Shown piece by piece: positions 9,674 through 41,335 of a stretch of 41,335 bases of DNA. Below the pieces are notes generated by a model. That model was not told the origin of the DNA, ran no database searches, and saw only the letters and a program-made list of their open reading frames with translations. Numbering within the stretch: position 1 is the first letter of the stretch; each line of letters starts with the position of its first letter. A program made the position numbers and the translations under genes. Source of the stretch: an uncultured Ruminococcus sp. (lineage in GTDB: Bacteria; Bacillota; Clostridia; Oscillospirales; CAG-272); NCBI GenBank assembly GCA_902803255.1, contig CADCPG010000048.1:1-41335 (forward strand), given 5' to 3'.

Positions 9674-9676
9674 GCC

Positions 9677-25773: not shown

Positions 25774-25819
25774 ACACAGGGTGCACTATACAGCATACGA
25801 AAAGGACGGGATCCATTCG

Positions 25820-26842
25820 ATGAACGAACTAAAGAAAAAACTGGCCGAGATCCAGGCGCAGGCCGAAAAGAAGATAAACGAGGACGGCATAGACCCCGAG
25901 AAGGTCAGGATCGAATACCTCGGCAAGAAGGGCGACCTCACCGCCGTGCTCAGGAGCATGGGCAGCCTGTCGCCCGAGGAAAGACCGCAGATCGGCCAGC
26001 TCGCGAACAAGGTCCGGGCGGCCATCGAGGCGGCCATCGAGGCCAGAAAACAGTATCTGAAGACATCGCAGCTGGAGCACAGGCTCATGAGCGAAAAGCT
26101 CGACGTGACCATGCCCGGCGAGAGATTCGAGATCGGGCACAGACATCCGCTGACCAAGATCAGGCGCGAACTCGAGGACATCTTCCTCGGTCTCGGCTTC
26201 AGCATAGCCGAGGGACCGGAGGTCGAATATGACTATTACAACTTTCAGGCCCTGAACATCCCGCCCAACCATCCCGCCAGAGACACGCAGGATACCTTCT
26301 ACATCACCGACAGCGTCCTTCTCCGCTCCCAGACGTCTCCCGTACAGGTGCGCGTCATGGAAAAGCAGAAGCCGCCGATCAGGATAATATCCCCCGGAAG
26401 AGTCTACCGGGCCGACGACGTCGACGCCACCCATTCACCGCTCTTCCACCAGCTCGAAGGTCTCGTGGTCGACCGCGGGATCACGATGGGCGACCTCAAG
26501 GGCGTCCTTGAGCTCTTCGCGAAGAACACATTCGGCGAAGGGACGAAGATCAGGTTCAGGCCTCATCACTTCCCCTTCACCGAACCGTCCGCAGAAGTCG
26601 ACGTATCGTGCTTCGCGTGCGGCGGAAAAGGCTGCCGTCTGTGCAAGGGAGAGGGCTGGATCGAGATCCTCGGCGCCGGAATGGTGCACCCGAAGGTGCT
26701 CTCGGGCTGCGGGATAGATCCGAACGAATACTCCGGATTCGCCTTCGGGTTCGGGATCGAGCGCATAGCGATGCTGAAATACCACATCGACGACATGCGC
26801 CTGCTCTACGAGAACGACATGCGCTTCCTCTCGCAGTTCTGA
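25820..26842 (+). CDS. pheS: Phenylalanine--tRNA ligase alpha subunit
   Basis: Class II motifs are [27 protein letters not shown] and [15 protein letters not shown] chose the ATG at 25820 (340 aa) over the GTG at 25781. Confidence 0.92.
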
Positions 26843-26896
26843 GCGGCGCCCGGACCGGAACAACTGAAGATTACAGGAGCAGGAGTTGATCGTAAA

Positions 26897-29290
26897 ATGA
26901 TTTTATCACTTGAATGGCTGAACGAGTTCACCGATATAACCGGAATGGGTCCCAAGGAATTCTGCGACAGGATGACCGACACCGGATCCAAGGTCGAAAA
27001 CTACAGGGTGCTCGGCGAAAACATAATAAACGTCAAAGTCGGAAAGATCCTCTCGGTCGAAAAGCACGAAAACAGCGACAGGCTGCAGATCTGCATGACC
27101 GACGCGGGCGGAGAAAAGCCGCTGCAGATAGTCACCGCCGCGACGAACGTGTTTCCCGGGGCGGTGGTCCCGGTGGCGGTCGCAGACGCCAGGCTCCCCG
27201 GCGGGGAGATAAAGAAAAGCAAGCTCCGCGGAGTTCTCTCCGAGGGCATGTTCTGCTCGATAGCCGAGCTCGAGCTGACGACGCACGACATGCCGGGAGC
27301 CGCCGAGGACGGGATACTGATCCTCGGTGAGGAATTCGGGAAGTTCGTCGGCGCCGACATCCGCGACGTCCTGAAGCTCTCCGACACCGCCGTAGAGTTT
27401 GAGATAACCCCCAACCGCCCCGACTGCCTGTCGGTCATCGGACTCGCCAGAGAGGCCTCGGTCTCCTTCGGCAGACCGCTGAAACTGCACACCCCCTCGG
27501 TGCGCGGGTCGTCGGACGGCGACATCATCGAGAACTACCTCACCGTGACCGACAGCGCCCCCGGGCTCTGCCCGAGATACACGGCGAGAGTCGTGAAGGA
27601 CGTGAAGATCGCGCCCTCTCCGCTCTGGATGAGAGCACGTCTGCGCGCGTCCGGCGTGCGCCCGATCAACAATATCGTCGATATAACCAATTACGTCATG
27701 CTTGAATACGGACAGCCGATGCACGCGTTCGACTACAAGTGCCTCGACGGTTCGTCGATCACAGTGCGGACAGCGGCCGAAGGCGAGAAGTTCGTCTCGC
27801 TCGACGGAAAGGAACACATCCTCGACGGCGGCACGCTCGTAATCGCCGACGCGAAGAAGCCGGTCGCTCTGGCCGGCGTCATGGGCGGCGAGAACAGCGA
27901 GATAACCGGATCGACCTCGACCGTCGTGTTCGAGTCGGCGAACTTCCTCGGAGCCTGCGTCAGGATCGGAGCCCGCAAGCAGGGCATGCGCACCGAGAGC
28001 TCGTCGAGATTCGAGAAGGGCCTCGACCCCGAAAACACCCTCCCCGCGATCGAGAGAGCCTGCGAACTGGTCGAGATGCTGGGCGCCGGGACCGTCGTCG
28101 ACGGCATCACCGACGTCTTCCCCGGACGGACCGCCGCCCGCAGGACGCCGCTCCGTCCCGACGTAATCAACCGCTTCCTCGGCACATCGATCGACGAGGC
28201 ATTCATGCGCAGGACGCTCGCCGAGCTCGGATTCGGCTTCGACGGAGGAGACGTCATCATCCCCTCCTGGAGAGCGGACGTCGAAGAGATGGCCGACCTC
28301 GCCGAGGAGATCATCCGCATCAGGGGCTACAACACCATAGAATCGGCTGCGATCTGCGCAAGCACCACCGAGGGAATGAGGACCCCGAGGCAGAACTTCG
28401 ACCTTGGGATCGAGCAGACCCTCATCGGGCTCGGACTGTCCGAGATACAGACGTTCTCGTTCATCAGTCCCAAATACTACGACAGGATCGGTCTTCCCGC
28501 CGGCGACCCGAGAAGGCGCTCGGTGAAGATCCGCAATCCCCTCGGAGAGGACACCGGCATCATGCGCACCACCGCGCTTCCCTCGATGCTCGAGGTGATC
28601 GCGAGGAACATCAACTTCAGCAACGAAAACGCCAGGCTGTTCGAGATGGCGACTGTATATATCCCGGGCGACGACCCCGATGCGCTCCCCGAGGAGCCGG
28701 TATCGCTGACGCTGGGAATGTACGGAGGCTGCACTTTTTATACCGTCAAGGGCATAGTCGAGGCGCTGCTGAGGTCGTGCGGCGTCAGGGGCGCATCGTT
28801 CACCGCCGCCGCGGCACCCGGATTCCATCCCGGAAGATGCGCGGAATTCCGGAGCGCGAAAGGCGAACTACTCGGCACATTCGGACAGATCCACCCGAAC
28901 GTCGCCGCCGCTTACGGGACCGATCAGCAGATCTTCGCCGCCGAGATCAGCGTTCCCGGGCTCTTCGCCGCCTCCGACAGGACGATCGAATACCGCCCGC
29001 TCCCGAAGTACCCCGCCGTGACGCGCGATTTCTCGTTCGTCTGCGACGACGGCCTCGAGGTCGGAAAGATCGAGGACGTGATGAAGAAGGCCGGAGGCGA
29101 CCTGCTCGAGGATATAAAGGTCTTCGACGTCTACCGCGGGCTTCAGCTCGGCGCCGGCCGGAAGAGCGTCTCGCTCAGGGCGGTGCTCAGAGCGGCCGAC
29201 CGCACGCTCACACAGGACGATTCAGACAAAGTCTGCGCGGGAATGCTCGACGCCCTGAAGAAGGAACTGGGACTTGCCCTCCGCGGCTGA
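26897..29290 (+). CDS. pheT: Phenylalanine--tRNA ligase beta subunit
   Basis: N-terminal tRNA-binding domain VKVGKILSVEKHENSDRLQIC, B3/4 and B5 regions, and a C-terminal FDX-ACB domain. 797 aa. Confidence 0.93.
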   Translation: MILSLEWLNEFTDITGMGPKEFCDRMTDTGSKVENYRVLGENIINVKVGKILSVEKHENSDRLQICMTDAGGEKPLQIVTAATNVFPGAVVPVAVADARLPGGEIKKSKLRGVLSEGMFCSIAELELTTHDMPGAAEDGILILGEEFGKFVGADIRDVLKLSDTAVEFEITPNRPDCLSVIGLAREASVSFGRPLKLHTPSVRGSSDGDIIENYLTVTDSAPGLCPRYTARVVKDVKIAPSPLWMRARLRASGVRPINNIVDITNYVMLEYGQPMHAFDYKCLDGSSITVRTAAEGEKFVSLDGKEHILDGGTLVIADAKKPVALAGVMGGENSEITGSTSTVVFESANFLGACVRIGARKQGMRTESSSRFEKGLDPENTLPAIERACELVEMLGAGTVVDGITDVFPGRTAARRTPLRPDVINRFLGTSIDEAFMRRTLAELGFGFDGGDVIIPSWRADVEEMADLAEEIIRIRGYNTIESAAICASTTEGMRTPRQNFDLGIEQTLIGLGLSEIQTFSFISPKYYDRIGLPAGDPRRRSVKIRNPLGEDTGIMRTTALPSMLEVIARNINFSNENARLFEMATVYIPGDDPDALPEEPVSLTLGMYGGCTFYTVKGIVEALLRSCGVRGASFTAAAAPGFHPGRCAEFRSAKGELLGTFGQIHPNVAAAYGTDQQIFAAEISVPGLFAASDRTIEYRPLPKYPAVTRDFSFVCDDGLEVGKIEDVMKKAGGDLLEDIKVFDVYRGLQLGAGRKSVSLRAVLRAADRTLTQDDSDKVCAGMLDALKKELGLALRG

Positions 29291-29291
29291 G

Positions 29292-29783
29292 ATGTCTGGT
29301 ACCGTCACACTTTTTGAGACCGTATCGGAGAACGTCCGGGACACCGGGCTCGCAGGCGCGAAGCTCGCCGGAATGATACGCGACGACCCGTCGATGCCGT
29401 CCTTCGTCTGCCTGAGAGGAGACCTCGGCGCAGGCAAGACCGTCTTCGCACGCGGCTTCATCGGAGCTCTCTGCCCCGGGGTCCGCGTCCGCTCTCCCTC
29501 ATATACACTCATCAACGAATACCCGTGCCGTATCGGCGGACGACGGATCCGCGTATGCCACATGGACGCCTACCGGATAAACGGATACGACGATCTCTTT
29601 TCGACCGGATTCTACGACATCCCAGAAGGAAGAGATTCGGCCGTGCTCTGCGAATGGCCGGAGAAGATATACTTCGCCCTGCCGGAGCGCAGGATCGAAG
29701 CCGTCATCTCGCCCGTGCCGGCGGACGCGCCGGCCGGCACCCCCGAAGGCCGGAAAATCACAGTATCGGTGGTAAACGAATGA
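29292..29783 (+). CDS. tsaE: tRNA t6A37 biosynthesis ATPase TsaE
   Basis: P-loop LRGDLGAGKT and SPSYTLINEY. The ATG lies 1 nt after the pheT stop. Confidence 0.85.
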   Translation: MSGTVTLFETVSENVRDTGLAGAKLAGMIRDDPSMPSFVCLRGDLGAGKTVFARGFIGALCPGVRVRSPSYTLINEYPCRIGGRRIRVCHMDAYRINGYDDLFSTGFYDIPEGRDSAVLCEWPEKIYFALPERRIEAVISPVPADAPAGTPEGRKITVSVVNE

Positions 29784-30571
29784 CAGTACTTGCCTGCGAC
29801 AGCTGTTCCGGGACCGCCTCCGCCGCCCTATGCGACGGCAGCCGGCTGATCTCCGAAGCCTCTGTCACCAACGGAAACACTCATACCGAGACTCTCATGC
29901 CGCTGATAGAAACGGTGCTCCGGACCGGAGGCGTCTCCGTCTCAGAGATAGACCTTTTCGCCTGTACGAGCGGTCCCGGTTCATTCACCGGAGTACGCAT
30001 AGGTGTCGCGACTGTCAAGGGCCTCGCCCTGGGCCGCGGCGTGCCCTGCGCCGGAGTCTCGTCGCTCGAGGCCCTAGCGTACGCGGCGGCCGCGGAGGCG
30101 GCGGCCTCTGCCGCGGCCGGCTGCCTGCCGCCGCTCATTCTTCCGCTGCTCGACGCGAGAAGGGGCCAGTTCTACACCGCTCTCTTCGAGCCTGACGGGG
30201 GGCTCCCGCTCAGGCTCACGGACGACGAAGCCCTCGACATCGGTAAGATATCGTCGATGCTGGCGGAAGACGGAAGATACGCGGGCAGGCCGGTCCTGCT
30301 CTGCGGAGACGGCGCCGCGGCGGCGCTGCCCGGCCTTCCCGCCGGAAGATGCGTCATGCCGCCGCCCCACCGCTCGTTCATATCACCCTATTACGTCGCC
30401 CAGGCCGCTCTGGCGGCGCACTCGCGCGGACAGAGCGTCACCGACGCGGCACTGCTGCCGTCGTACCTGCGGATCCCGCAGGCCGAACGCGACAGACTGG
30501 AAAAACTCAAAGGCCCCGGCACCGCCGGCACGAACACCGAAGGAACGACATCAACGGAGGCGAATAAATGA
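29780..30571 (+). CDS. tsaB: tRNA t6A37 biosynthesis protein TsaB
   Basis: LACDSCSGTASAAL and GPGSFTGVRIGVATVKGLA. ATGA overlap with the tsaE stop. Ala-rich insert and Thr-rich C-terminal tail. Confidence 0.85.
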   Translation: MTVLACDSCSGTASAALCDGSRLISEASVTNGNTHTETLMPLIETVLRTGGVSVSEIDLFACTSGPGSFTGVRIGVATVKGLALGRGVPCAGVSSLEALAYAAAAEAAASAAAGCLPPLILPLLDARRGQFYTALFEPDGGLPLRLTDDEALDIGKISSMLAEDGRYAGRPVLLCGDGAAAALPGLPAGRCVMPPPHRSFISPYYVAQAALAAHSRGQSVTDAALLPSYLRIPQAERDRLEKLKGPGTAGTNTEGTTSTEANK

Positions 30572-31056
30572 AAAAGATCCTCATAGGAAGCGACCACGCC
30601 GGATTCGACGCGAAGAAGAAGATCGCGGAGCACCTCCGCTCGCTCGGTCACGAAGTCACCGACTGCGGAACATATTCAACTGTCAGCTGCGACTACCCCA
30701 TCATCGCCCACAGGACCTGCGCGAAATTCGCGGAGGGCGGATATGACTTTGCCGTACTCATCTGCGGGACAGGGATCGGAGTTTCGATCGCCGCCAACAA
30801 GCACGCCGGGATCAGAGCCGCGCTCTGCAACGACATCTTCTCCACCGAGATGGCGCGCCAGCACAATGACGCCAACGTCCTCTGCCTCGGAGCCCGTGTC
30901 CTCGACATATCGCTTATGAACGACATCGCCGACACTTTCATCGCCACTCCGGCTCTCGAAGAGGAGAGACACGTGCGCAGACAGGCCGAGATGAAGGCGC
31001 TTGACGACGGCAACTTCGACGAGCTGTTCGGGACGGGAGCCGTCCCGGGCAAATGA
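30568..31056 (+). CDS. rpiB: Ribose-5-phosphate isomerase B
   Basis: KILIGSDHAGF, LICGTGIGVSIAANK and NDANVLCLGARV. ATGA overlap with tsaB. Confidence 0.9.
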   Translation: MKKILIGSDHAGFDAKKKIAEHLRSLGHEVTDCGTYSTVSCDYPIIAHRTCAKFAEGGYDFAVLICGTGIGVSIAANKHAGIRAALCNDIFSTEMARQHNDANVLCLGARVLDISLMNDIADTFIATPALEEERHVRRQAEMKALDDGNFDELFGTGAVPGK

Positions 31057-31075
31057 CCGGGGAACTCTCAAAAAG

Positions 31076-31945
31076 TTGGAAAAGAACAGCAGAAAACTGC
31101 TCCGCGGGATAGCGGCCGCCCTGAGAGAGGCGTCCGGCAGCCCTAAGAAGAACAGATTCACGACCGCCGTGATCGTCGCGGCAGGCCGTTCGGAGCGTAT
31201 GGGCGGGGATATCCCCAAGCAGTTCATCACGCTCGACGGCATACCTGCCGCGGCGGCGTCGCTCCGGGCATACAACGAATCGGCATACATAGACGCGATA
31301 GTGGCGGTCGTGAGGCCCGAAGACGTCGAGTCGGGCATATACGCCGAATTCAGGGAAAAATACGCTCTCGGAAAGCTCGTATCGGTGGTCGCCGGCGGAA
31401 GCACGCGCCAGGAGTCGGTGCTTCGCGGGATAGAGGAGATAGCGTCGCCGTCGTCGCCCGGCGCTTCGGTCTTGAAAAAGACCGAATATGTCGCCATAGC
31501 CGACGCCGCGAGGCCGCTTACGACCCCGGAGGACATCGACAGGGTCTGCATCGCCGCCTGCCGCTTCGAAGCCGCAACGGCGGCCTGCCGTGCGGTCGAC
31601 AGCGTAAAGGTGGCGGACAGTCACGGATTCATCGATTCGTCTATCGACAGAAAGACGGTCTGGCTCGCCGCGACTCCCCAGGTGTTCAGCCTGCCCCTCT
31701 ACCGCGCGGCGGCATATTCCGCGCTCGAGGAGGGGTTCGAGGGCAGCGACGACAACGAGCTTGTCGAGCACATGGGGCACGCGGTAAAGATCGTCGAGAT
31801 CGGAAGGTACAATATCAAACTCACGCGTCCGGAGGACCCGTACGTCGCCGCGGCTCTTGCCGGGTATCTGAAAAAGAAGGCAGCTGAGGAATACGAACAG
31901 TCGCATACCGCCGCCGTGAAAAAGACAGGACCCGATAATAAATAA
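31076..31945 (+). CDS. ispD: 2-C-methyl-D-erythritol 4-phosphate cytidylyltransferase
   Basis: AVIVAAGRSERMGGDIPKQF, VADAARP and a conserved KLTRPED-type C-terminus. The start is uncertain. The in-frame TTG at 31076 avoids overlap with rpiB. The ATG at 31001 would overlap rpiB by 56 nt. Confidence 0.8.
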   Translation: MEKNSRKLLRGIAAALREASGSPKKNRFTTAVIVAAGRSERMGGDIPKQFITLDGIPAAAASLRAYNESAYIDAIVAVVRPEDVESGIYAEFREKYALGKLVSVVAGGSTRQESVLRGIEEIASPSSPGASVLKKTEYVAIADAARPLTTPEDIDRVCIAACRFEAATAACRAVDSVKVADSHGFIDSSIDRKTVWLAATPQVFSLPLYRAAAYSALEEGFEGSDDNELVEHMGHAVKIVEIGRYNIKLTRPEDPYVAAALAGYLKKKAAEEYEQSHTAAVKKTGPDNK

Positions 31946-31975
31946 TAACAGTTGTTCCGCGCTGCGGAAGAACGG

Positions 31976-32500
31976 ATGAGAAGAAAATTGAACAATAATT
32001 GCGGAAATGATCCCCGCGCGATCAGGATCGGACACGGATACGACGTCCACCGCTTCGCCGAAGGGCGGCGGCTGATCATTGGCGGGGCCGAAATAGAATA
32101 TCCGTACGGGCTGCTCGGGCACTCCGACGCCGACGTCCTGACGCACGCCGTCATCGACGCTCTCTTCGGCGCGGCGGCGCTGGGTGACATCGGTTCCCAT
32201 TTCCCCGACACCGACCCCGCGTACAAGGACGCCGACAGTATCGCGCTTCTGCGCAGAGCCGGCGAGATTATACAGGGTGCGGGCTGGCGAGCCGTCAATA
32301 TCGACTCGACCGTGATCGCGGAGCGTCCGAAGCTCGCACCCTACATCGATGAAATGAGACAGAACATCGCCTCGGCGCTGGGTATGCCGGCCGGCTGCGT
32401 CAGCGTCAAGGCGACGACCGAGGAAGGCCTCGGATTCACCGGCAGACGCGAGGGCATTTCAGCCCACGCCGTTTGTCTTATAGAAAAAAACGGAGACTGA
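31976..32500 (+). CDS. ispF: 2-C-methyl-D-erythritol 2,4-cyclodiphosphate synthase
   Basis: [45 protein letters not shown] and [15 protein letters not shown] 31976 is preferred over TTG 31952. Confidence 0.9.
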
Positions 32501-32507
32501 TCTTACA

Positions 32508-33188
32508 ATGAAAGATACGATACTTATATCCCCATCCCTGCTGGCAGCGGATTTTTCAAGGCTGGCTGAAGAGATAGCCGGGATCGAATCTGCCGCGGAC
32601 TACCTCCATCTCGACGTCATGGACGGTCATTTCGTCCCAAATATGTCGATAGGCCCCGCGGTGATATCCTCGCTCCGCAGCGTCTCCGATCTGATCTTCG
32701 ACGTCCATCTGATGATCAGCGACCCCGAAAAGTACACCGACGCGTTCATTGACGCCGGCGCCGACATCGTCACCTTCCATATCGAAGCTTGTCCCGACCC
32801 GCGCCCCGTCATAGAAAAGATACGCGGCCGCGGGCGTCACGCCGGACTGGCGATCTCCCCCGATACCCCCGCGGAAGCGGTGTTTCCCTATCTCGGGGAG
32901 GTAGACATGATACTCGTCATGACAGTCTATCCCGGCTTCGGAGGACAGAAGCTGATAGGTGACACGATCCCCAAGATCACAGAGATCCGGCGCGAGGCGG
33001 AGGCCCGCGGACTCGATACTGACATCGAGGTCGACGGCGGGATCGGCGACGGAAACGTCGCGCTGCTCAGTGCCGCCGGAGCGAACGTGATCGTGGCGGG
33101 GTCGTCGGTATTCAGGTCGCATGATCCGTCGGATGCCGTCGACAGACTGCGCGAGGCAGCCGAATCGGCGCCTTACGTCCACTATTGA
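32508..33188 (+). CDS. rpe: Ribulose-phosphate 3-epimerase
   Basis: ISPSLLAADFSRL, LHLDVMDGHFVPN, PGFGGQKLI and VDGGI. Confidence 0.92.
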   Translation: MKDTILISPSLLAADFSRLAEEIAGIESAADYLHLDVMDGHFVPNMSIGPAVISSLRSVSDLIFDVHLMISDPEKYTDAFIDAGADIVTFHIEACPDPRPVIEKIRGRGRHAGLAISPDTPAEAVFPYLGEVDMILVMTVYPGFGGQKLIGDTIPKITEIRREAEARGLDTDIEVDGGIGDGNVALLSAAGANVIVAGSSVFRSHDPSDAVDRLREAAESAPYVHY

Positions 33189-33207
33189 AAAAGGGAGAAT
33201 CATTATA

Positions 33208-35535
33208 ATGATGACAAAAGAAATAAGCGAAGTGGCCTCCCGTATAAGGACTCTTCGCGAAGTTGCCGGCATGAGCCAGCAGGAGGCGGCCAGCCGCACC
33301 GAAGTATCGCTCTCCGAATACCGTTCTCTGGAACAGGGCGAGAAGGACTTCCCCTTCACGTTCATATACAAGGCCGCGGCGACCTTCGGGGTCGAGATGC
33401 GCGACATACTCGAAGGAACGAGCCCGAATCTCAAACTCTATACAGTGACGAGAAAAGGCGAGGGGATGCCCATCGCCCGCAACACCGGATTCACCTACCA
33501 CAACCTTGCGCCGTCGTTCAAGCACAAGTCGGCCGAACCCTTCTGGGTCAGCATCCCGGCCGAATCGGAGAACGAGCCGCCCGTCTTCACCAAGCACAAC
33601 GGCCAGGAGATCGACATCGTCATAAAGGGCAAACTCGAGATCAGGATCCACGACCGGATGGAGATACTGAACGAGGGCGACACCATCTACTACAACAGTT
33701 CCTATCCGCACGCCCTGCGTGCGATGGGAGGCAGGGTCTGCGAGGTCTACGCCATAGTCCTCAAGCCCTCCGAGACCGACAGCTCGTTCGATCAGAACGC
33801 CGTCGATCCCGAGAACGCCGTCGCGCCGGAGGAGATCACCGAGAGGACGGTCGCCGACGACTTCGTATCGCTTTCGTTCGACGACAAGGGCGTCGTGAAC
33901 GGCATATCGTTCAAAAACGAGGACAGATTCAACTTCGCCTTCGACGTTGTCGACAGGATCGCGGCGAAAACGCCCGACAGGCGCGCGATGCTCTGGGTCG
34001 GGGCCGACAAGCGCGACCACTCCTTCACATTCGGCGACATGTCGAGATACTCGAACATGACGGCCAACTACTTCCAGTCGGTCGGAATAAAGCGGGGCGA
34101 CAGGGTGATGCTGGTGCTCAAGCGCCACTATCAGTTCTGGTTCTGCATGCTCGCGCTCCACAAGATCGGAGCTATAGCCATCCCCGCCACGAACCAGCTG
34201 GTGCTGCACGACTTTGAATACCGCTTCGACGCCGCCGGCGTCAGCGCCATCGTATGCACGGCCGACGGAGAGACACATCTGCACGCCGAAAAGGCCGCCG
34301 AGGCCCACCCCGGCATGATAAAGATACTCGTAGGCGGAAAGCGCGAGGGCTGGCTCGACTACAACAGCGAGATGTCGCTCTGCAGCGACTCGTTCATGCG
34401 CACCGCCAACTCCCCCTGCGGCGACGACAAGATGCTCATGCTCTTCACGTCGGGCACCTCGGGATACCCCAGGATCGCCGCGCATTCGTACAAATACCCG
34501 CTGGGGCACTACATCACCGCCAGATGCTGGCATTCGGTCCATCCCGACGGCCTTCACTTCACCGTATCCGATACCGGATGGGGCAAGGCGCTCTGGGGAA
34601 AGCTCTACGGACAGTGGCTCTGCGAGGCCCCCGTATTCACATACGACTTCGACCGCTTCAACCCGGCCGACATACTTCCCCTCTTCGAGAAATACCGCAT
34701 AACCACCTTCTGCGCGCCGCCCACGATCTACCGCTATCTGATCAGAGAAGACCTGTCGAAGTACAACCTCTCGTCGATCGAATACGCGACGACCGCGGGA
34801 GAGGCGCTCAACCCCGAGGTCTCGAACATCTTCTACTCCGCCACCGGCCTTCGCATCATGGAGGCCTTCGGTCAGACCGAGACGACGCTCGTCATAGGCA
34901 ATTTCGTCGGTTCCGTCCCGAAGACCGGCTCGATGGGCAAACCGTCGCCGCTCTACAAGGTCGAGCTGCTCGGCGCCGACGGCAAAAAGTGCGCCCCCGG
35001 CGAGACCGGCGAGATCTGCATCGACGTATCCGGAGGCCGCCCCTGCGGGCTGTTCCTCGGCTACTATAACGACCCCGACACCACCGCGAAGGTCCTGCAC
35101 GACGGCTACTACCACACCGGCGACACCGCGACGGTGGACGAGGACGGCTACTACTGGTACATCGGCCGCGTCGACGACGTCATCAAGTCATCGGGCTACC
35201 GCATAGGGCCGTTCGAGATCGAGAGCGTCATAATGGAGCTCCCGTATGTCCTCGAGTGCGCGATCACGGCGGTCCCCGACGAAGTCAGAGGCCAGATAGT
35301 CAAGGCCACCATTGTCCTCACCCGCGGCACGAAGCCGTCCGAGGAGCTGAAGAAGGAGATCCAGGGATACGTCAAGACGCACACCGCGCCGTACAAGTAC
35401 CCGAGGGTCGTCGAATTCACCGACGAGCTCCCCAAGACGATAAGCGGAAAGGTCAGGCGCTTCGTGATCAGGAGCAGAGACATTGAGAAGCTCGGAGCCG
35501 AACCCGGGACGCCGGTGAAGACCGAAAACAGATAA
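33208..35535 (+). CDS. Fusion protein: XRE-type HTH, cupin domain, acidic linker, and an ANL-superfamily acyl-CoA synthetase (medium-chain/ACSM-like)
   Basis: ATG 33208 has SD AAGGGAGA upstream. The HTH is IRTLREVAGMSQQEAASRTEVSLSEYRSLEQGE. The cupin is HNGQEIDIVIKGKLEIRIHDRMEILNEGDTIYYNSSYPHAL. ANL motifs are LMLFTSGTSGYPR, EAFGQTE, YYHTGD, GRVDDVIKSSGYRIGPFEIE and PKTISGKVRR. No stop or frame break occurs across the junction. Confidence 0.85.
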   Translation: MMTKEISEVASRIRTLREVAGMSQQEAASRTEVSLSEYRSLEQGEKDFPFTFIYKAAATFGVEMRDILEGTSPNLKLYTVTRKGEGMPIARNTGFTYHNLAPSFKHKSAEPFWVSIPAESENEPPVFTKHNGQEIDIVIKGKLEIRIHDRMEILNEGDTIYYNSSYPHALRAMGGRVCEVYAIVLKPSETDSSFDQNAVDPENAVAPEEITERTVADDFVSLSFDDKGVVNGISFKNEDRFNFAFDVVDRIAAKTPDRRAMLWVGADKRDHSFTFGDMSRYSNMTANYFQSVGIKRGDRVMLVLKRHYQFWFCMLALHKIGAIAIPATNQLVLHDFEYRFDAAGVSAIVCTADGETHLHAEKAAEAHPGMIKILVGGKREGWLDYNSEMSLCSDSFMRTANSPCGDDKMLMLFTSGTSGYPRIAAHSYKYPLGHYITARCWHSVHPDGLHFTVSDTGWGKALWGKLYGQWLCEAPVFTYDFDRFNPADILPLFEKYRITTFCAPPTIYRYLIREDLSKYNLSSIEYATTAGEALNPEVSNIFYSATGLRIMEAFGQTETTLVIGNFVGSVPKTGSMGKPSPLYKVELLGADGKKCAPGETGEICIDVSGGRPCGLFLGYYNDPDTTAKVLHDGYYHTGDTATVDEDGYYWYIGRVDDVIKSSGYRIGPFEIESVIMELPYVLECAITAVPDEVRGQIVKATIVLTRGTKPSEELKKEIQGYVKTHTAPYKYPRVVEFTDELPKTISGKVRRFVIRSRDIEKLGAEPGTPVKTENR

Positions 35536-35551
35536 AAAAGGAGACGCCGCC

Positions 35552-36859
35552 ATGACGCTCGACTACAGAAGAGAATTTGAGATCCGGCACCGCTATGACG
35601 TTGCGGTGATAGGCGGAGGACCCGCCGGAGTCGCCGCGGCCGTCGAGGCGGCCCGTAACGGGGCTGACACGCTGCTTGCGGAATCGTCGGGACTCCTGGG
35701 CGGTATGGCGGCGTCGGCCCTCGTAGGGCCCTTTATGACGTGCTACGACAGGGACGGCGAGCGAAAGGTCGTCGGCGGCATCTTCGACGAGATAGTCGAA
35801 CGCACGGCGGCCCTGGGCGGGGCGATACCGCCGTCGGAGACAGACTCCCCCTCGCGCTACACCTCATTCATCTCGAAATACCACAGGCATGTGACTCCCT
35901 TCGATTCATTCGCACTTGAGACCGCGCTCGACGGAATGGTCAAAGAGGCGGGTGTCGACCTTATGCTCTACACCTCATTCTGCGACGCCGTCGTGAATGA
36001 GGAGAACGGAAAGATAGACGCGCTCATCTTCTCATCACTCGAGGGCCTCTGGGCCGCTCAGGCGGACGTCGTGGTCGACTGCACCGGCACCGCCGCCGTG
36101 GCGGCCGCCGCCGGTGCGCCGACCTGGAAGGGCGGCGAGGACGGCGCGCCTCCGCAGCCCGGGACCTATTTCTTCGAGGTCGACGGCGTGAACGACGAGG
36201 GATACGTCGCGCGCCCCAAGGCGCCGGTGAAGGCGTACATGCTCCCCGGAGGCGGCGCGTACAAAATAAACAGCTACCGCGTCTTCGGCGTCGATGCGGC
36301 GGACTCCGCAAGCATGACGGAAGGAACGGTAGCGGGAAGAAAACAGGTATTCAAAGCACTCGACGTCCTGCACGGCACGCCCGGCTTCGAGAACGCGAGG
36401 CTCTCTCAGGCGGCGTCGATGCTCGGCGTGCGCGAGAGCAGACACATCCGCGGGAAATACATCCTGAAGGTGAGCGACCTCACCGGGGGGACCGTGTTCG
36501 ACGATTCGATCTGCTGCTTCGGATACGGGATGGACGTGCATCCGCGCGACCCCGGCCTCGAGGGCAAGGGCAATTTCAAGATAGAGGTGGCGCCGGTATA
36601 TACGATACCCTACCGCTGCCTCGTTACGGAAACGGTAGGGAATCTGCTTGCCGCGGGCAAGTGTATCAGCGCCGAATCTCAGGCGGCCGGGAGCATACGC
36701 GTCATGCCTGCCTGCGTGGCGACGGGACAGGCCGCGGGCGCGGCTGCCGCGATGGCATCCCTGTCCGGAACATCTCCGTCCCGGATCGACACGGAAAAGC
36801 TCATATCGCTGCTCCGCTCTCACGGCGCGGTGACCTGCCCCGCCGACATTGCCGGCTGA
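35552..36859 (+). CDS. FAD-dependent oxidoreductase (FAD_oxidored-like, no signal peptide)
   Basis: Dinucleotide fold YDVAVIGGGPAGVAAAVEAARNGADTLLAE. The C-terminus AAGKCISAESQAAGSIRVMPACVATGQAAG is typical of this flavoprotein family. SD AAGGAGA lies 7 nt upstream, 16 nt after the previous stop. Confidence 0.8.
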   Translation: MTLDYRREFEIRHRYDVAVIGGGPAGVAAAVEAARNGADTLLAESSGLLGGMAASALVGPFMTCYDRDGERKVVGGIFDEIVERTAALGGAIPPSETDSPSRYTSFISKYHRHVTPFDSFALETALDGMVKEAGVDLMLYTSFCDAVVNEENGKIDALIFSSLEGLWAAQADVVVDCTGTAAVAAAAGAPTWKGGEDGAPPQPGTYFFEVDGVNDEGYVARPKAPVKAYMLPGGGAYKINSYRVFGVDAADSASMTEGTVAGRKQVFKALDVLHGTPGFENARLSQAASMLGVRESRHIRGKYILKVSDLTGGTVFDDSICCFGYGMDVHPRDPGLEGKGNFKIEVAPVYTIPYRCLVTETVGNLLAAGKCISAESQAAGSIRVMPACVATGQAAGAAAAMASLSGTSPSRIDTEKLISLLRSHGAVTCPADIAG

Positions 36860-36865
36860 GGAGGC

Positions 36866-37141
36866 TCAGAGACTGCTCAGAGCCTCTTTGATTGCGTCGA
36901 TAAGCTTGGTACCGGCACCTGAAAGTACCGATATTGTAAGCACGACAAGGAAGATCACCAAAGCCACTAACAGAACGCAGAAATAGGATCTGGCGAAGTT
37001 CCGGCGGTTGATATTGGCCGACGAGATGCTGAAAACGATGAGAAAGATGAACCCTACGACCGGGATGGAAAACAGTATCTGAAGCCCGAAATATGACCAG
37101 GGAGACAGCGGCCTCAGCTGTTCTGAAGAATACTGATTCAC
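36866..37141 (-). CDS. Small 2-TM membrane protein, hypothetical
   Basis: 91 aa. The GTG start has SD AGAGAGGT 7 nt upstream. WSYFGLQILFSIPVVGFIFLIVF and SYFCVLLVALVIFLVVLTISVL are hydrophobic helices. Confidence 0.6.
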   Translation of the reverse strand: MNQYSSEQLRPLSPWSYFGLQILFSIPVVGFIFLIVFSISSANINRRNFARSYFCVLLVALVIFLVVLTISVLSGAGTKLIDAIKEALSSL

Positions 37142-37178
37142 GGCGTGTACCTCTCTTTTGACAGTTTATTTTTTTGCC

Positions 37179-37211
37179 GGCCGGCGGAGTTCTCCGCCGG
37201 CCAGCTGTTTT
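37179..37211 (+). terminator. GC-rich hairpin whose U-run lies on the plus-strand transcript. Candidate terminator of the long plus-strand operon.
   Basis: GGCCGGCGGA-gttc-TCCGCCGGCC (10 bp), followed by agctgtttt on the + strand. On the minus-strand RNA the stem is followed by an A-run instead. Confidence 0.45.
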
Positions 37212-37231
37212 ACTGTACGCTGGACCGGATG

Positions 37232-38659
37232 TCAGAACTCGATCCTTTTTTCGATATACTCGCGGAGCCCGGATACCGGGATCCTGACCTGCTCCATGCT
37301 GTCCCTCTCCCTGACCGTGACGCAGCCGTCGGTCTCGGAGTCGAAATCGTACGTGACGCAGAAGGGGGTCCCGATCTCGTCCTGTCTGCGGTATCTCTTG
37401 CCGATAGACCCGGTCTCGTCGTATTCGACGGCAAAGTATTTGCAGAGAGTGTCGGCGATCTTCCCCGCTCCCTCGGCAAGCTTCTTTGAGAGCGGCAGTA
37501 CGGCCGCCTTTACGGGAGCAAGCGCGGGATGGAGCCTCATTACGGTGCGGACGTCGTTCTTCGCCGGATCGACAACCTCTTCGTCGTAGGCGTCGCAGAG
37601 CACTGCCAGCACAGACCGCTCGACGCCGAGCGACGGCTCGATGACGTACGGGATGTAATGCTCGTTCTTCTCCTGGTCGAAATAGGTGAGGTCCTTTCCC
37701 GACACCGTCTGGTGCTGGGTGAGGTCGTAGTCGGTCCTGTCGGCGACGCCCCAGAGTTCGCCCCATCCGAACGGGAAGAGGTACTCGAAGTCCGTCGTGG
37801 CCTTGGAATAGAACACCAGCTCCTCGGGATCGTGGTCGCGGAGCCTGATGTGATCCTCCTTAAGGCCGATCGACAGCAGCCAGTCGCGGCAGAAGCCGCG
37901 CCAGTAGTCGAACCATTCGAGGTCGGTGCCGGGCTCGCAGAAGAACTCGAGCTCCATCTGTTCGAACTCGCGGACTCTGAATATGAAGTTGCCGGGAGTT
38001 ATCTCGTTTCTGAAGGACTTCCCTATCTGGCCTATGCCGAAGGGGAGTTTTTTTCTTGTGGTGCGCTGGACGTTCACGAAGTTGACGAATATGCCCTGCG
38101 CCGTCTCGGGACGGAGATACACGGTGTTCTTGGTGTCCTCGGTGACGCCCTGGAAGGTCTTGAACATCAGGTTGAACTGTCTGATGTCGGTGAAGTTGTG
38201 CTTTCCGCAGCTCGGGCAGGGGATCGCCTTTTCCTCTATGAATGCCTTCATCTCGGGCTGAGTGAAGGCGTCGATGGGTTTGTCGAGGACAAATCCGGTC
38301 TCAGCGCACCAGTCCTCGATAAGTTTGTCAGCTCTGAAGCGCTCGTGGCATTCGCGGCAGTCCATGAGTGGATCCGAGAATCCGGACAGATGGCCGGAGG
38401 CCACCCAGGTCTGCGGATTCATGAGTATGGCGGCGTCGAGGCCGACGTTGTATTTGTTCTCCTGGACGAATTTCTTCCACCAGGCGCGCTTGATGTTGTT
38501 CTTGAGCTCGACTCCCAGCGGGCCGTAGTCCCAGGTGTTGGCGAGTCCGCCGTAGATCTCGGAGCCGGGGAAAATGAAGCCGCGCGTCTTGCACAGCGCC
38601 ACGATCTTGTCCATGTCCCGCAGCGCGGGATTGCCCTGAATGCTGTTTTCGTTGTCCAT
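37232..38659 (-). CDS. glyQS: Glycine--tRNA ligase (alpha2 homodimeric type)
   Basis: [23 protein letters not shown], the class II motifs, and the C-terminal anticodon-binding region [16 protein letters not shown] lies 7 nt upstream. Confidence 0.93.
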
Positions 38660-38716
38660 TGACGTATCCTTTGTATATCTTTTTTTCTGTTTGGATTGCT
38701 GTTTCGTCGGGGGAGG

Positions 38717-39868
38717 TCAGCCGTTCTTCTTTTCGTAGAGCTTCTTGTATTTCGAGAAGGCGTTTATCGTCGCGTTCTCGTCGTAGACAGAGGCCTCGGG
38801 GTCGCCGGGCACCGGTTTTTTCACCGTGACCGTCGAGATCTCGACCGTCGTGCCGCCGCATGTGAAGAGCAGCTCGGCGTTCGACACGAGGTCCTTCGTC
38901 GTGATGTCGGTATCGAGCATTCCGTCGACAGCCTTGATGAACTCGTCCGTCCTTGCCCTTCCGCCGAGCGACGTGAGGTCTGAGATGAACGACTGCACGA
39001 AGTTGACCGTCGTGCGCTTGCGGCTGTTCACGCCGTCGGTATAGCTGTTGAACATCAGCAGCTGCAGGGCCTTGTCGCCGTTAAGCTTCTGGCTCCCTGC
39101 CTTGAGATCGATATGCACGTTTCCCGAGACGTCGTCGTATTTCATATTGCAGGGCACGTATACGCTGACTCCGCCGATCGCGTCGATGACCTTCGGGAAC
39201 GACTCCATGGTGGCGAGCGCGTACCTGTCGACCAGGATACCGGTGAGCGCGTGGATCTTGTCGCGCAGCGCGACGATCCCGTATCTGGAGAAGACCTCAC
39301 CCAGTCTGCAGTATCCGCCGTTGACGGTCACGTAGGCTTTGGGGTCGAACACGGTGTAGCTTATGTGCCCGCGCTCCTTGTCGAAGCGGAGCAGCATGAG
39401 GGTATCGGTCTCGACGGTCCGGTACGAGACCCTGTAGAAGCCGTTCCGGAAGGCGAGCCTGTCGTCCGAGATCTTTACGCCGTCGAGCGGTTCTACGCCG
39501 GAGTCGCTTATCACTCCCGATGGGGCCGGCATGCCGAGATCGTTCGGAACGGGGCGCATCACCGGGTACTCACGCACCACTCCGAAGCGCTCCTCTATGA
39601 CCTTGCTGTCGTAGTCGGCGAAGACTCCGCCCCTGTAATCGCACCCGACGATCAGTATGTTGACCGATTCGCCGTCGGACTCATCGTCGGTACCGGGGAC
39701 CGGTTCGGCCCTGCCGGGGCCTGCCGTCGTGACGGCCTCGGTGGTCTTGCTGTCGAGAGCGCCGTTTATGTTGTTGATGACCAGGTTCACCGCGAGATAC
39801 GCCACGAGCGAAAAGATCAGCAGCGCGATGATGAAGGTCAGAAAGAAATTCTTTATTGCCGACAGCAT
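38717..39868 (-). CDS. LytR-CpsA-Psr (LCP) family cell-wall glycopolymer transferase
   Basis: N-terminal TM IKNFFLTFIIALLIFSLVAYLAV. The LCP core is VNILIVGCDYRG ... DTLMLLRFDK ... VIDAIGGVSVYVP ... LNGDKALQLLMF. I chose the ATG at 39868, with SD GGAGGA 10 nt upstream. Confidence 0.8.
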   Translation of the reverse strand: MLSAIKNFFLTFIIALLIFSLVAYLAVNLVINNINGALDSKTTEAVTTAGPGRAEPVPGTDDESDGESVNILIVGCDYRGGVFADYDSKVIEERFGVVREYPVMRPVPNDLGMPAPSGVISDSGVEPLDGVKISDDRLAFRNGFYRVSYRTVETDTLMLLRFDKERGHISYTVFDPKAYVTVNGGYCRLGEVFSRYGIVALRDKIHALTGILVDRYALATMESFPKVIDAIGGVSVYVPCNMKYDDVSGNVHIDLKAGSQKLNGDKALQLLMFNSYTDGVNSRKRTTVNFVQSFISDLTSLGGRARTDEFIKAVDGMLDTDITTKDLVSNAELLFTCGGTTVEISTVTVKKPVPGDPEASVYDENATINAFSKYKKLYEKKNG

Positions 39869-39932
39869 GATCGCCTTATCCTCCTCCCCTCTTCCGGACA
39901 CCGTCCGTGTTAAAGCAAAATGTGATTATATT

Positions 39933-39961
39933 ATTATATAACTAATCCGCCGATTTTGCAA
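39933..39961 (-). promoter_or_regulatory. Sigma-A-type promoter for the LCP-glyQS transcription unit
   Basis: The minus strand reads TTGCAA-17 nt-TATAAT. The -35 is at 39956-39961 and the -10 at 39933-39938. A second TATAAT lies 2 nt downstream. Confidence 0.7.
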
Positions 39962-39974
39962 GTTAATTCTTCGT

Positions 39975-40024
39975 CTGTGCTACGCCTGTGCTCTGCCTGT
40001 GCTACTCCTGTGCTCCGTCTGAGC
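39975..40024 (-). repeat. 11-bp phased direct repeats, 4.5 copies (minus strand GAGCACAGGAG TAGCACAGGCA GAGCACAGGCG TAGCACAGACG)
   Basis: The + strand core ctgtgct begins at 39975, 39986, 39997 and 40008, exactly 11 bp apart. A partial fifth copy is at 40019. The array lies 8 nt after the tgt stop and 14 nt upstream of the -35 hexamer. Confidence 0.9.
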
Positions 40025-40032
40025 CATGACGG

Positions 40033-41169
40033 TCAGTCGCTGCACCGTTCTGCCAGGGCCGTCCTGAAGCGGCGGTAGAACTCCCCGTATGCGCCGGCGT
40101 CGAGGGCCGCTCTGATCTTTGACATCAGCTCGTTGTAGAAATACAGGTTGTGGAGCACCGCCAGCCTCATGCCCAGCATCTCCTCGGCCTTGAGCAGATG
40201 ACGGATGTACGCCCTGCTGTGAGCGCGGCAGGCCGGGCATCCGCAGCCCGGGTCGATCGGTCTGCCGTCGGTCGCGTACTTCTCGTTGAGTATGTTCATC
40301 TTCCCGTTCCAGGTGAAGAGGTTGCCGTGCCTCGCGTTGCGGCTGGGCATGACGCAGTCGAAGAAATCGACTCCCCGGTACACCCCTTCGAGTATGTTCA
40401 CCGGAGTCCCGACGCCCATGAGGTAGCGCGGTCTGTCTTCCGGCATGAAGGGCTCGACGGCATCAATGATGCGGTACATCTCCTCCGTCTCCTCTCCCAC
40501 GGCAAGACCTCCGATCGCGTAGCCGTCGAGGCCGTACTTCGCGATCTCCTTCATGTGCCGGATGCGGAGGTCCTCGTATGTGCCTCCCTGGTTTATGCCG
40601 AAGAGCAGCTGCGAGGGGTTGACCGTATCGGGAAGCGAATTGAGCCTTGCCATCTCCTCGCGGCACCGCAGCAGCCACCGGGCAGTCCGTTCAGTCGACT
40701 CCCTGACGTAGTCGTACGGCGAGGGATTGGCGACGCATTCGTCGAAGGCCATCGCGATCGTCGAGCCGAGGTTCGACTGGATACGCATGCTCTCCTCGGG
40801 TCCCATGAAGATGCGCCTGCCGTCGATGTGAGAGGCGAAATGCACTCCCTCCTCGGTGATCTTGCGCAGCGACGACAGCGAGAATACCTGAAAGCCTCCG
40901 CTGTCGGTGAGTATCGGGCCGTCCCAGTTCATGAACCGGTGAAGGCCTCCCAGACCCTTTATAAGGGCGTCTCCGGGCCGGAGATGCAGGTGGTAGGTAT
41001 TTGACAGCTCGACCTGGCATCCGACCTCACGGAGGTCCTCGGCGGCGATCCCGCCCTTAACGGCGGCGCAGGTCCCGACGTTCATGAACACAGGCGTCTG
41101 CACCGTCCCGTGTACCGTCTCGAAACTGCCGCGCCTCGCGCGGCCTTCCTTCAAATGCAGCTTGAACAT
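40033..41169 (-). CDS. tgt: tRNA-guanine transglycosylase (queuine tRNA-ribosyltransferase)
   Basis: RARRGSFETVHGTVQTPVFMNVGT, ILTDSGGFQVFS, the Zn site CxCxxC (CGCPACRAHSRAYIRHL), and SD GGAGGGA upstream. Confidence 0.93.
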   Translation of the reverse strand: MFKLHLKEGRARRGSFETVHGTVQTPVFMNVGTCAAVKGGIAAEDLREVGCQVELSNTYHLHLRPGDALIKGLGGLHRFMNWDGPILTDSGGFQVFSLSSLRKITEEGVHFASHIDGRRIFMGPEESMRIQSNLGSTIAMAFDECVANPSPYDYVRESTERTARWLLRCREEMARLNSLPDTVNPSQLLFGINQGGTYEDLRIRHMKEIAKYGLDGYAIGGLAVGEETEEMYRIIDAVEPFMPEDRPRYLMGVGTPVNILEGVYRGVDFFDCVMPSRNARHGNLFTWNGKMNILNEKYATDGRPIDPGCGCPACRAHSRAYIRHLLKAEEMLGMRLAVLHNLYFYNELMSKIRAALDAGAYGEFYRRFRTALAERCSD

Positions 41170-41290
41170 TTATCCCTCCGCGCCTTCATGCGGACATGCA
41201 GGCGCGGTCTCCTTTCGCGCCGCGTCTGCCGCGGCGTCTGTCATTTTTACGCTTTTCGGGCGCAGCTTCGATCTTCTCCGGTGCGGCGGG

Positions 41291-41335
41291 TCAGTTCCTG
41301 CCGAACCTGCGGTCGAGGTCCGCTTTGCGTATCCT
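41291..41335 (-). CDS. 3' end (14 codons plus stop) of an unidentified gene that continues beyond the window
   Basis: The open frame from the window edge ends at TGA and encodes ...RIRKADLDRRFGRN. High GC3. Too short to identify. Confidence 0.25.
   Translation of the reverse strand, partial: RIRKADLDRRFGRN

Follow-up and report, generated by a model that had tools for sequence, protein, structure and literature searches.

The fusion gene and its position in the window

The gene studied here lies on a contig of an uncultured Ruminococcus sp. (GenBank assembly GCA_902803255.1, contig CADCPG010000048.1, positions 1 to 41,335 of the forward strand); this whole stretch of 41,335 nucleotides (nt) is referred to as the window. 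The gene is a single open reading frame (ORF) of 775 codons at 33208-35535 (+), which runs without interruption and joins a helix-turn-helix (HTH) domain of the XRE type and a cupin barrel to an acyl-coenzyme A (CoA) synthetase of the ANL superfamily. Judged against the curated Pfam cut-offs, all four domains were detected above threshold: HTH_31 at residues 10-62 (31.2 bits, cut-off 27) together with HTH_3 at residues 13-66 (29 bits, cut-off 23), Cupin_2 at residues 125-183 (35.6 bits, cut-off 27.2), AMP-binding at residues 249-620 (179 bits) and AMP-binding_C at residues 670-748 (76 bits). Head and synthetase are connected by an acidic linker (residues 188-213), which is the most variable segment of the family (entropy of 3.1 bits among 93 homologs), differs in length as well as in sequence, and in a full-length structure model reached a predicted local distance difference test (pLDDT) value below 50 at residues 188-207. 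In the list of ORFs the frame started at 33121, which is the first in-frame ATG after the upstream stop but is located inside rpe; the start was therefore placed at 33208, where ATG-ATG is preceded by GGGAG (Table 1).

The fusion gene is appended to a row of housekeeping genes. The stop codon of rpe (TGA, 33186-33188) is separated from it by 19 nt, and 16 nt lie between the fusion gene and the next ORF. Neither a sigma-70-like promoter nor a terminator was found between rpe and the fusion ORF by a promoter and terminator scan. The order tsaE-tsaB-rpiB-ispD-ispF-rpe, together with PF00834, was also present in the related loci L007, L009, L010, L098 and L099 (L numbers designate the surveyed loci). 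A preliminary description made from the letters of the window had already listed the 775-codon ORF, its domains and acidic linker, a complete ligase, the position 19 nt behind rpe with no promoter of its own, and a flavin adenine dinucleotide (FAD)-dependent oxidoreductase ORF 16 nt downstream, and all of these were borne out by the present analysis.

Table 1. Features at the fusion locus of the window and tandem paralog units in related loci.
Feature	Coordinates	Strand	Details
rpe (ribulose-phosphate 3-epimerase)	32508..33188	+	Last gene of the tsaE-tsaB-rpiB-ispD-ispF-rpe housekeeping cluster; fusion gene appended behind
19-nt spacer	33189..33207	+	GGGAG ribosome-binding site at 33193-33197; relatives have a 270-290-nt T-box leader here
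XRE-type HTH, residues 1-70	33208..33417	+	Pfam HTH_31/HTH_3; net charge -3; helix 3 variable; D47-F48-x-F50-x-F52 invariant
Cupin barrel, residues 76-187	33433..33768	+	Pfam Cupin_2; triad H130/E134/H168 at nt 33595-33597, 33607-33609, 33709-33711
Acidic low-complexity flexible linker, residues 188-213	33769..33846	+	High entropy, low pLDDT
Synthetase N-terminal (large) domain, residues 214-660	33847..35187	+	Predicted MacsMa-type, short/branched-chain; A3 P-loop TSGTSGYPR, W463, G555 in FGQTE, YHTGD; Pfam AMP-binding
Synthetase C-terminal (small) domain, residues 661-775 and stop	35188..35535	+	A8 GRxDDVIKSSGYR; CoA-pocket R694, Y729, Y731; A10 Lys K748; Pfam AMP-binding_C
FAD-dependent oxidoreductase (PF12831), 435 codons	35552..36859	+	Co-directional, 16 nt past the fusion gene; lineage-specific neighbor
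Tandem paralog unit, L072	7368-9964		
Tandem paralog unit, L076	7361-9953		
Tandem paralog unit, L083	2599-		
Tandem paralog unit, L087	7372-9946		
Tandem paralog unit, L088	4575-		
Tandem paralog unit, L089	7345-9930		
Tandem paralog unit, L091	7727-10400		

The fusion recurs in independent assemblies

Among about 5.8 billion proteins searched, more than 120 full-length homologs were found, with lengths of 754-775 amino acids (aa), identities of 66-99% to the window protein and the same four domains. They were drawn from NCBI, JGI, ENA and Logan assemblies, where their labels go no further than "AMP-binding protein", "cupin domain-containing protein" or "acetyl-CoA synthetase". In GTDB, with one genome per species, relatives were encoded in at least 598 stretches, and in the best 80 of these at least 598 matches residues ~1-760 were covered in one frame. 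The carriers were uncultured Clostridia from the guts of ruminants, other animals and humans, labeled as Oscillospiraceae, Acutalibacteraceae, Ruminococcaceae and similar. As the fusion recurs across independent assemblies, hundreds in number, it is not an artefact, and a frameshift, a missed stop or a mis-assembly is ruled out for practical purposes. A split of the ORF near the linker, which the preliminary description had named as a finding that would speak against a fusion, was not seen in these homologs.

The ligase is related to MacsMa

The C-terminal 540 residues matched PDB entry 3ETC, the medium-chain acyl-CoA synthetase MacsMa from Methanosarcina acetivorans, with 647 bits and about 60% identity over 520 residues; the next PDB matches were a 4-hydroxybutyrate-CoA ligase and human ACSM2A. 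Core motifs A3, A5, A7, A8 and A10 (TSGTSGYPR, GQTE, YHTGD, GRVDDVIKSSGYR and PKTISGK) all align with 3ETC, and the A10 lysine (K748) is present. We assign the ligase to the Macs-type members of the ANL superfamily. The best NCBIfam model was MbcS (NF047394), the methylbutyryl-CoA synthetase of Staphylococcus aureus, with 421.8 bits, under its equivalog cut-off of 850.

MacsMa prefers 2-methylbutyrate, and only with this acid are both half-reactions completed (PMC10455477). The roles of the MacsMa residues were taken from the same publication. Its numbering differs by 23 from the chain index of 3ETC; this shift was applied in the mapping and was checked on R490, Y525 and Y527. The pocket tryptophan W259 of MacsMa corresponds to W463 in the window protein (in GKALWGK), the glycine in place of Trp416 of Acs to G555 (in FGQTE), G459/Y460 to G663/Y664, R490 to R694, K519 to K723, and Y525/Y527 to Y729/Y731. 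The mapped pocket residues are invariant in the 93 homologs, except for Y664, which is conserved in at least 90%. Both features of a medium- or branched-chain acyl pocket, the glycine for Acs Trp416 and the alternative pocket tryptophan, are thus found in the window ligase. K461 of MacsMa is replaced by R665, and arginine is found here family-wide. In most members the A3 P-loop (residues 414-422) ends in Arg; some have Lys as the last residue, and two have Asn or Gly. In MacsMa and in most ANL enzymes this residue is Lys.

Relatives of the fusion gene are preceded by T-box leaders

Most homologs are stand-alone genes located behind 350-550 nt of non-coding DNA that contains AATTTGAGTGGTACCGCGG, followed by a terminator. 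In L001 this leader was recognized by the Rfam T-box model with 94.1 bits (gathering threshold 93). The 34 leaders that were aligned share a fold made up of Stem I, which bears the specifier loop, of a stem III and of a terminator; 31 of the 52 pairs show compensatory changes. The leaders carry a T-box sequence resembling GGTGGTACCGCG. Using an nhmmer profile built from the leader alignment, a T-box was found immediately 5' of the fusion gene in 79 of 91 loci. Among the 12 loci that lacked a leader, six were contigs ending at most 126 nt from the start codon, four belonged to the clade of the window, and two (L061 and L086) were unexplained. These two have ample upstream sequence (1-630 and 1-4985, respectively), are placed outside the window clade and show no detectable T-box; they may be independent losses.

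The specifier was read as the triplet that ends one base short of the 3' strand of the lower Stem I helix. It was ATC (AUC, Ile) in 71 of the 79 leaders, i.e., in all that the script could parse (eight were unparsed), and ATC also forms an invariant column at the specifier position of the 34-leader alignment. In L004-L006 ileS is located directly downstream of the fusion gene.

In several loci a second fused gene, with its own promoter and T-box, follows directly downstream (tandem units in Table 1). The specifier of this paralog was GTA in L076, L083, L087, L088 and L089 and GTC in L091, both of which stand for Val, and CTG (Leu) in L072, where the next ORF (7682-9964) encodes a 760-aa HTH-cupin-ligase. 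The Val-type was compared using the four translated proteins from L076, L087, L089 and L091. They share 75-81% identity with each other and about 65% with the Ile-type copy in the same genome. Val-type and Ile-type proteins are distinguished by 23 fixed differences, of which the large ligase domain accounts for 16, among them G459A and L462M, close neighbors of the pocket tryptophan W463.

Further leaders were noted in the surveyed loci. A second T-box, whose specifier was read by eye as CTC (Leu), precedes a gene for a ~462-aa HMGL/LeuA-like protein, which is followed by a gene for a ~830-aa fusion of a xylose-isomerase-like triosephosphate isomerase (TIM) barrel and an AMP-binding ligase (L024 457-4596; also in L030, L036, L037, L045, L046, L048, L049, L050 and L077, and in L068 at 9720-6865 (-)). 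This operon lies immediately 5' of the Ile-T-box fusion gene in 10-12 loci and encodes another uncharacterized ANL fusion under amino-acid control. A T-box whose specifier appears by eye to be ATC (Ile) precedes a gene for a transporter belonging to the sodium:solute symporter family (511-516 aa) that is convergent with the fusion gene in L021 (9166-7346 (-)) and L043 (9185-7343 (-)), and this symporter could take up 2-methylbutyrate or isoleucine. Similar leaders with CTC or CTT (Leu) were seen before other genes in L039, L048 and L064.

The T-box was lost in the clade of the window

In the window itself no T-box was found at the Rfam gathering threshold, at an Rfam E-value of up to 1 (26000-41335) or with the nhmmer leader profile of the family. 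T-box control is missing from the preliminary description because it is not visible in the window. The position behind rpe is common to the window and to relatives that are 75-83% identical. Among these, L009 and L012 (75%) still have a leader after rpe, which is about 360 nt long and has ATC as its specifier. In L007 (83%) there is a 133-nt spacer with no T-box, in L099 (79%) a 19-nt gap after rpe, again with no T-box, and in L098 (79%) the fusion gene overlaps the rpe stop by 4 nt and has no T-box either. As L009 and L012 keep the leader and L007, L098 and L099 do not, the loss of the T-box falls within the clade whose members are at least 79% identical. We infer that in this clade the fusion gene has become the tail of the tsaE-rpe housekeeping operon. 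The window therewith appears to hold a riboswitch-controlled gene that was captured by a housekeeping operon.

The HTH-cupin head is a partner of the ligase

A search with the N-terminal 240 residues among 1.84 billion representatives returned further fusions, at 33-48% identity, and also many proteins of 182-195 aa that stand alone, at 30-41% identity. Three stand-alone relatives were examined for their gene context. In two of the three, a separate Macs gene directly follows the HTH-cupin gene. Identity to the window protein is 41-47% for these heads and 51-54% for these ligases, and in L093 an Ile T-box precedes the gene pair. Among relatives the two parts therefore occur fused and also as adjacent genes, and we regard the HTH-cupin protein as a genuine partner of the ligase in either form. 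Behind the third relative (L095, 5001-6477), at a distance of 13 nt, lies the gene for a RimK/ATP-grasp ligase and not for an ANL enzyme, which suggests that the HTH-cupin module is able to pair with other ATP-dependent carboxylate-activating enzymes.

In the AlphaFold2 (AF2) model of the head, which reached a pLDDT of 88.9, five helices (residues 4-19, 24-30, 35-42, 50-60 and 64-69) are followed by the barrel. Its best PDB match was HppE, the hydroxypropylphosphonate epoxidase (E = 4e-14), followed by HEPD/MPnS, and the best geometric match was 1Y9Q, a Vibrio "HTH_3 regulator". A direct sequence search of the PDB with the N-terminus returned only a 65-aa HTH of the PbsX family; HppE and 1Y9Q were reached by profile. 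With the family profile, too, HppE is the best PDB match, over its full length (E = 5e-11); the identity of the head to HppE is 17-20%. H130, E134 and H168 do not vary among fused and stand-alone relatives and form an H-x3-E...H pattern, which aligns with 'GHAGNEF' and 'VPHAF' of HppE; 1Y9Q has no counterpart of the first histidine. In HppE these residues are the iron ligands (2-His-1-Glu).

The cupin barrels of Ile-type and Val-type proteins differ in only two fixed and conservative positions (K107R and F112L). The idea that the cupin reads the side chain of the acyl group or amino acid found no support in this comparison, and, as the barrel is nearly the same in both types, its ligand is probably common to all three systems.

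Proposed role

We hold it probable that the fusion is a two-module protein in which a MacsMa-type synthetase activates 2-methylbutyrate for the synthesis of isoleucine, the T-box of the family has been lost in the window clade, the HTH-cupin head is a metal-dependent accessory module, and the neighboring flavoprotein is unrelated. The C-terminal module (residues ~214-775) would convert 2-methylbutyrate to 2-methylbutyryl-CoA at the expense of ATP, with propionate as a less likely substrate. A ferredoxin-dependent 2-oxoacid oxidoreductase could then carboxylate 2-methylbutyryl-CoA reductively to the keto acid of isoleucine. In the family at large, uncharged tRNA-Ile would switch the gene on via the T-box leader, and the paralogs behind Val and Leu T-boxes would presumably act on isobutyrate and isovalerate, respectively. 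In the clade of the window, transcription would be read through from the tsaE-rpe operon. The N-terminal module (residues 1-187) would be an obligate companion of the ligase and most likely a ligand-sensing or accessory domain with a 2-His-1-Glu metal site that modulates the enzyme (compare HppE) and would not be a classical operator-binding repressor.

The evidence for this physiological role is comparative. Three specificities, each wired to the matching tRNA sensor, argue for activation of 2-methylbutyrate, isobutyrate and isovalerate for the synthesis of Ile, Val and Leu, and the family would thus most likely serve the supply of branched-chain amino acids from branched-chain fatty acids, which it would activate for reductive carboxylation. 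Reductive carboxylation of branched-chain volatile fatty acids is a classical amino-acid route of rumen and gut anaerobes. That the three acids enter the matching amino acids in rumen organisms and in Clostridium sporogenes is established, also by work of the Allison-Bryant era. Rumen organisms use 2-methylbutyrate for isoleucine synthesis (PMC10658910), and, according to a reference cited in PMC7476758, Clostridium sporogenes forms isoleucine from propionate or alpha-methylbutyrate.

A wider reading, which we advance tentatively and hold to be possible more than expected, is that in gut and rumen Clostridia the Ile, Val and Leu T-box paralogs constitute an undescribed salvage regulon gated by tRNA charging, in which each paralog activates its matching volatile fatty acid for reductive carboxylation and the head is a new type of metal-dependent regulatory subunit that acts as an allosteric gate or couples the state of the enzyme to DNA.

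Several observations weigh against activation of 2-methylbutyrate with an accessory head. An identity of 60% to MacsMa leaves the substrate unfixed, and propionate, via propionyl-CoA and 2-ketobutyrate, would serve isoleucine synthesis too. A gene for a 2-oxoacid:ferredoxin oxidoreductase was linked to the fusion in none of the 82 surveyed loci, and for this reason the reductive carboxylation is a step that we infer. The link to tRNA-Ile is, for the window copy, inherited from its relatives, the window copy itself having no T-box. With so few changes between Ile-type and Val-type barrels, the cupin is probably no side-chain reader. The full-length AlphaFold model is of only moderate confidence (predicted template modeling score of 0.62, linker disordered, no error map) and is unusable for contacts between the modules. 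The remaining points concern DNA binding: the HTH scores above the Pfam thresholds and is held constant by purifying selection at positions such as R12 and R17, which are invariant, the depositors of 1Y9Q call this best geometric match of the predicted head a transcriptional regulator, and the argument against DNA binding from acidic and variable recognition helices is a suggestive one.

Alternative functions of the head and of the ligase

Some of these points favor a trigger enzyme similar to BirA, as the preliminary description had envisaged. The HTH would bind an operator, the cupin and/or acyl-AMP bound to the ligase would set the affinity for DNA, and the protein would report the availability of the carboxylate; it could repress uptake genes or oxidoreductase genes, or add a "substrate present" gate to the "Ile scarce" signal of the T-box. 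Apart from the two HTH profiles above threshold and the invariant R12 and R17 in helix 1, this is consistent with the five-helix XRE fold, which was predicted with high confidence, with the likeness of the fold to the regulator 1Y9Q (template modeling score of 0.71-0.77), and with the XRE-cupin proteins that are established local repressors in Pseudomonas (PMC7901475). There is also a precedent for an ANL enzyme as regulator, FadD1 of P. aeruginosa (PMC12754631).

Nevertheless, we consider the trigger enzyme unlikely. The head is transcribed behind the T-box in the fused and in the split form, so that it is not needed for induction and is not the primary switch. It was either fused to the enzyme or encoded by the first gene of a T-box-controlled pair, which is not the arrangement of a stand-alone regulator gene that controls itself or diverges from its target. 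The net charge of the HTH ranged from -1 to -9 in all 22 sequences examined. Among the 93 orthologs the hydrophobic core and D47-F48-x-F50-x-F52 are invariant; positions 35, 36, 39, 40 and 43, which in our own alignment map to the base-contacting face of helix 3 of the 434 repressor, are the most variable ones of the HTH (1.9-3.1 bits) and mostly hold Glu, Asp or a hydrophobic residue. No conserved operator palindrome was found across 68 aligned promoter regions, which have -35/-10 boxes as well as A/T tracts in common. Within a single sub-clade of close relatives the leader starts with a further shared element, ATTTGAATATCACAAA, at its 5' end; the dyad in it, TTTG-N7-CAAA, is weak, and it was not accepted as an operator. 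HppE, which the head matches as strongly as it does any regulator, has the same two-domain fold and the same metal triad, and its helical domain is not known to bind DNA. The DNA-binding sensor of the preliminary description, with its BirA-like co-repressor, is therefore doubtful.

Still less probable is a bifunctional enzyme with a catalytic cupin, i.e., an isomerase, epimerase, decarboxylase or similar that acts on the acid, the acyl-CoA or the keto acid, with the HTH-like domain capping the active site as in HppE. No fused or stand-alone relative departs from the triad, the proteins at the top of the fold and profile matches, HppE, HEPD and MPnS, are all enzymes, and the stand-alone relative in L095 is paired with a carboxylate ligase of the RimK/ATP-grasp type. 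However, the route from acid via acyl-CoA and keto acid to amino acid requires no additional reaction, and the substrate of the Val-type, isobutyrate, is achiral, so that an epimerase would be pointless, yet the head is retained. The hosts are presumably strict gut anaerobes, as assumed from their taxonomy, in which oxygen-dependent cupin chemistry is unlikely, and the identity to HppE is merely 17-20%. For the head we therefore favor a metal-dependent sensor or accessory module over a DNA-binding trigger enzyme, and the latter over a catalytic cupin.

Least probable of all is a ligase for membrane lipid synthesis or acid catabolism: MbcS of S. aureus, the best NCBIfam match, activates 2-methylbutyrate and isobutyrate and supplies branched acyl-CoA primers for branched-chain fatty-acid synthesis (PMC10026030 and PMC11167679), and the window gene would be expressed with housekeeping genes outside amino-acid control, but the match is far under its cut-off, the tRNA-Ile, -Val and -Leu T-boxes matched to separate paralogs fit amino-acid supply and not lipid primers, and ileS directly follows the fusion in L004-L006.

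The flavoprotein and other neighboring genes

The preliminary description had suggested that the FAD-dependent oxidoreductase encoded at 35552-36859 (PF12831, FAD_oxidored, 344 bits) may act on the acyl-CoA product or on the carboxylate precursor. This was not supported, as the flavoprotein gene follows the fusion only in L010/L011, where the fusion protein is 99% identical to that of the window, and is absent behind the fusion in 82 other loci. In the next four nearest relatives the downstream gene differs from case to case, with convergent genes of an ATP-binding cassette (ABC) transporter in L007, a protease gene in L009, a gene for an Exo_endo_phos protein in L098 and GFO_IDH_MocA genes in L099, and the flavoprotein was part of no recurrent neighbor cluster in the 82 loci. 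Its own family is large (3506 matches, typically 55-65% identical), and the homologs adjoin an AraC regulator and a paralog, or glycoside hydrolases, with no ligase nearby. A sequence search against solved structures showed no resemblance past the Rossmann motif. With homologs in such unrelated contexts the flavoprotein was rejected as a partner; it is treated here as a probably unrelated, uncharacterized neighbor and should not be annotated as part of the ligase system.

A conserved gene neighborhood of the fusion was not found in the 82 loci; the largest cluster, in 13 of them, consisted of an antisense ORF across the leader that is spurious. The window also contains a 91-aa ORF (36866-37141 (-)) between the flavoprotein gene and glyQS, which has hydrophobic stretches and matches nothing in Pfam. 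L010/L011 have an equally long gene at the matching place, and L007 has a 90-aa gene in that region. Genes for aminoacyl-tRNA synthetases are often near the fusion: in the window a Glu/Gln-type gene, pheS, pheT and glyQS (24019-29290 and 37232-38659), in L004-L006 ileS (L004 8400-11525), and in L001 another synthetase gene (8391-10421). The ileS gene is the sole neighbor of this kind that looks functionally meaningful, and the rest may be due to chance.

Comparison with known systems

The family shares with MacsMa about 60% identity across the ligase, the ANL core motifs, the pocket tryptophan, the glycine for the Acs tryptophan and the Arg and Tyr of the CoA pocket. In contrast, MacsMa is an archaeal enzyme that has neither an HTH-cupin head nor a T-box, its P-loop ends in FPK where the family has Arg (or Lys, Asn, Gly), and its K461 is Arg in the family. 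We know of no T-box on MbcS, which belongs to the same enzyme class and has the same likely substrates, 2-methylbutyrate and isobutyrate. MbcS feeds fatty-acid synthesis and is not known to have an N-terminal module; the fusion family scores 422 bits against a cut-off of 850.

XRE-cupin factors of the PuuR, PauR, ErfA and PsdR class (PMC7901475) contain the same two Pfam domains in the same order, and the stand-alone relatives found here are of similar size (~185 aa). While these factors are stand-alone local repressors near their own or neighboring genes, the head described here is fused to or co-transcribed with a ligase, is acidic and has a complete metal triad. HppE and HEPD/MPnS have in common with the head the HTH-like domain with a cupin and the H-x3-E...H pattern, but the chemistry of HppE is oxidative and directed at phosphonates, for which the fusion has no context, and HppE has no link to an ANL enzyme. 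Trigger enzymes such as BirA, which uses its own adenylate as co-repressor, NadR and PutA resemble the fusion as enzymes fused to an HTH; they differ in the class of the HTH, and for the present family no operator was found and transcription is already under control of the T-box. T-box targets in Firmicutes are aminoacyl-tRNA synthetases and genes for amino-acid biosynthesis and transport. The leaders of the relatives show the canonical Stem I specifier loop, T-box sequence and terminator of these regulons, and the window copy has no leader.

A search of 8 million full texts yielded no paper on the HTH-cupin-ligase architecture, in agreement with the preliminary description, which knew of no characterized member, or on an acyl-CoA synthetase controlled by a T-box, and literature searches for an enzyme that activates branched-chain volatile fatty acids in rumen bacteria gave nothing specific. 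The MacsMa-type branch of ANL enzymes, the XRE-cupin/HppE fold and T-boxes are already known. What appears to be new is the conserved unit of HTH-cupin and ligase, either fused or in an operon, the acyl-CoA synthetase as a T-box target, the set of Ile, Val and Leu paralogs, and the loss of the riboswitch in the window clade.

Significance

Branched-chain volatile fatty acids have been known as growth factors for fiber degraders of rumen and gut since the 1960s and are used as feed additives. With its occurrence in at least 598 species and its paralogs on Ile, Val and Leu T-boxes, the family is a concrete candidate for the activating enzyme. Through this family the T-box regulon gains an acyl-CoA synthetase, and a biochemical question arises, the role of a conserved metal-binding HTH-cupin on an adenylate-forming enzyme. 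The family is of interest for the physiology of rumen and gut and for the enzymology of regulated ANL enzymes, with the physiological role resting on comparative evidence and not on the flanks in the window. The fusion gene could serve as a genomic marker for uncultured Clostridia that depend on cross-fed branched acids. If the wider reading of a salvage regulon is true, the family would be the missing activating enzyme behind the branched-chain fatty-acid requirement of fiber-degrading anaerobes.

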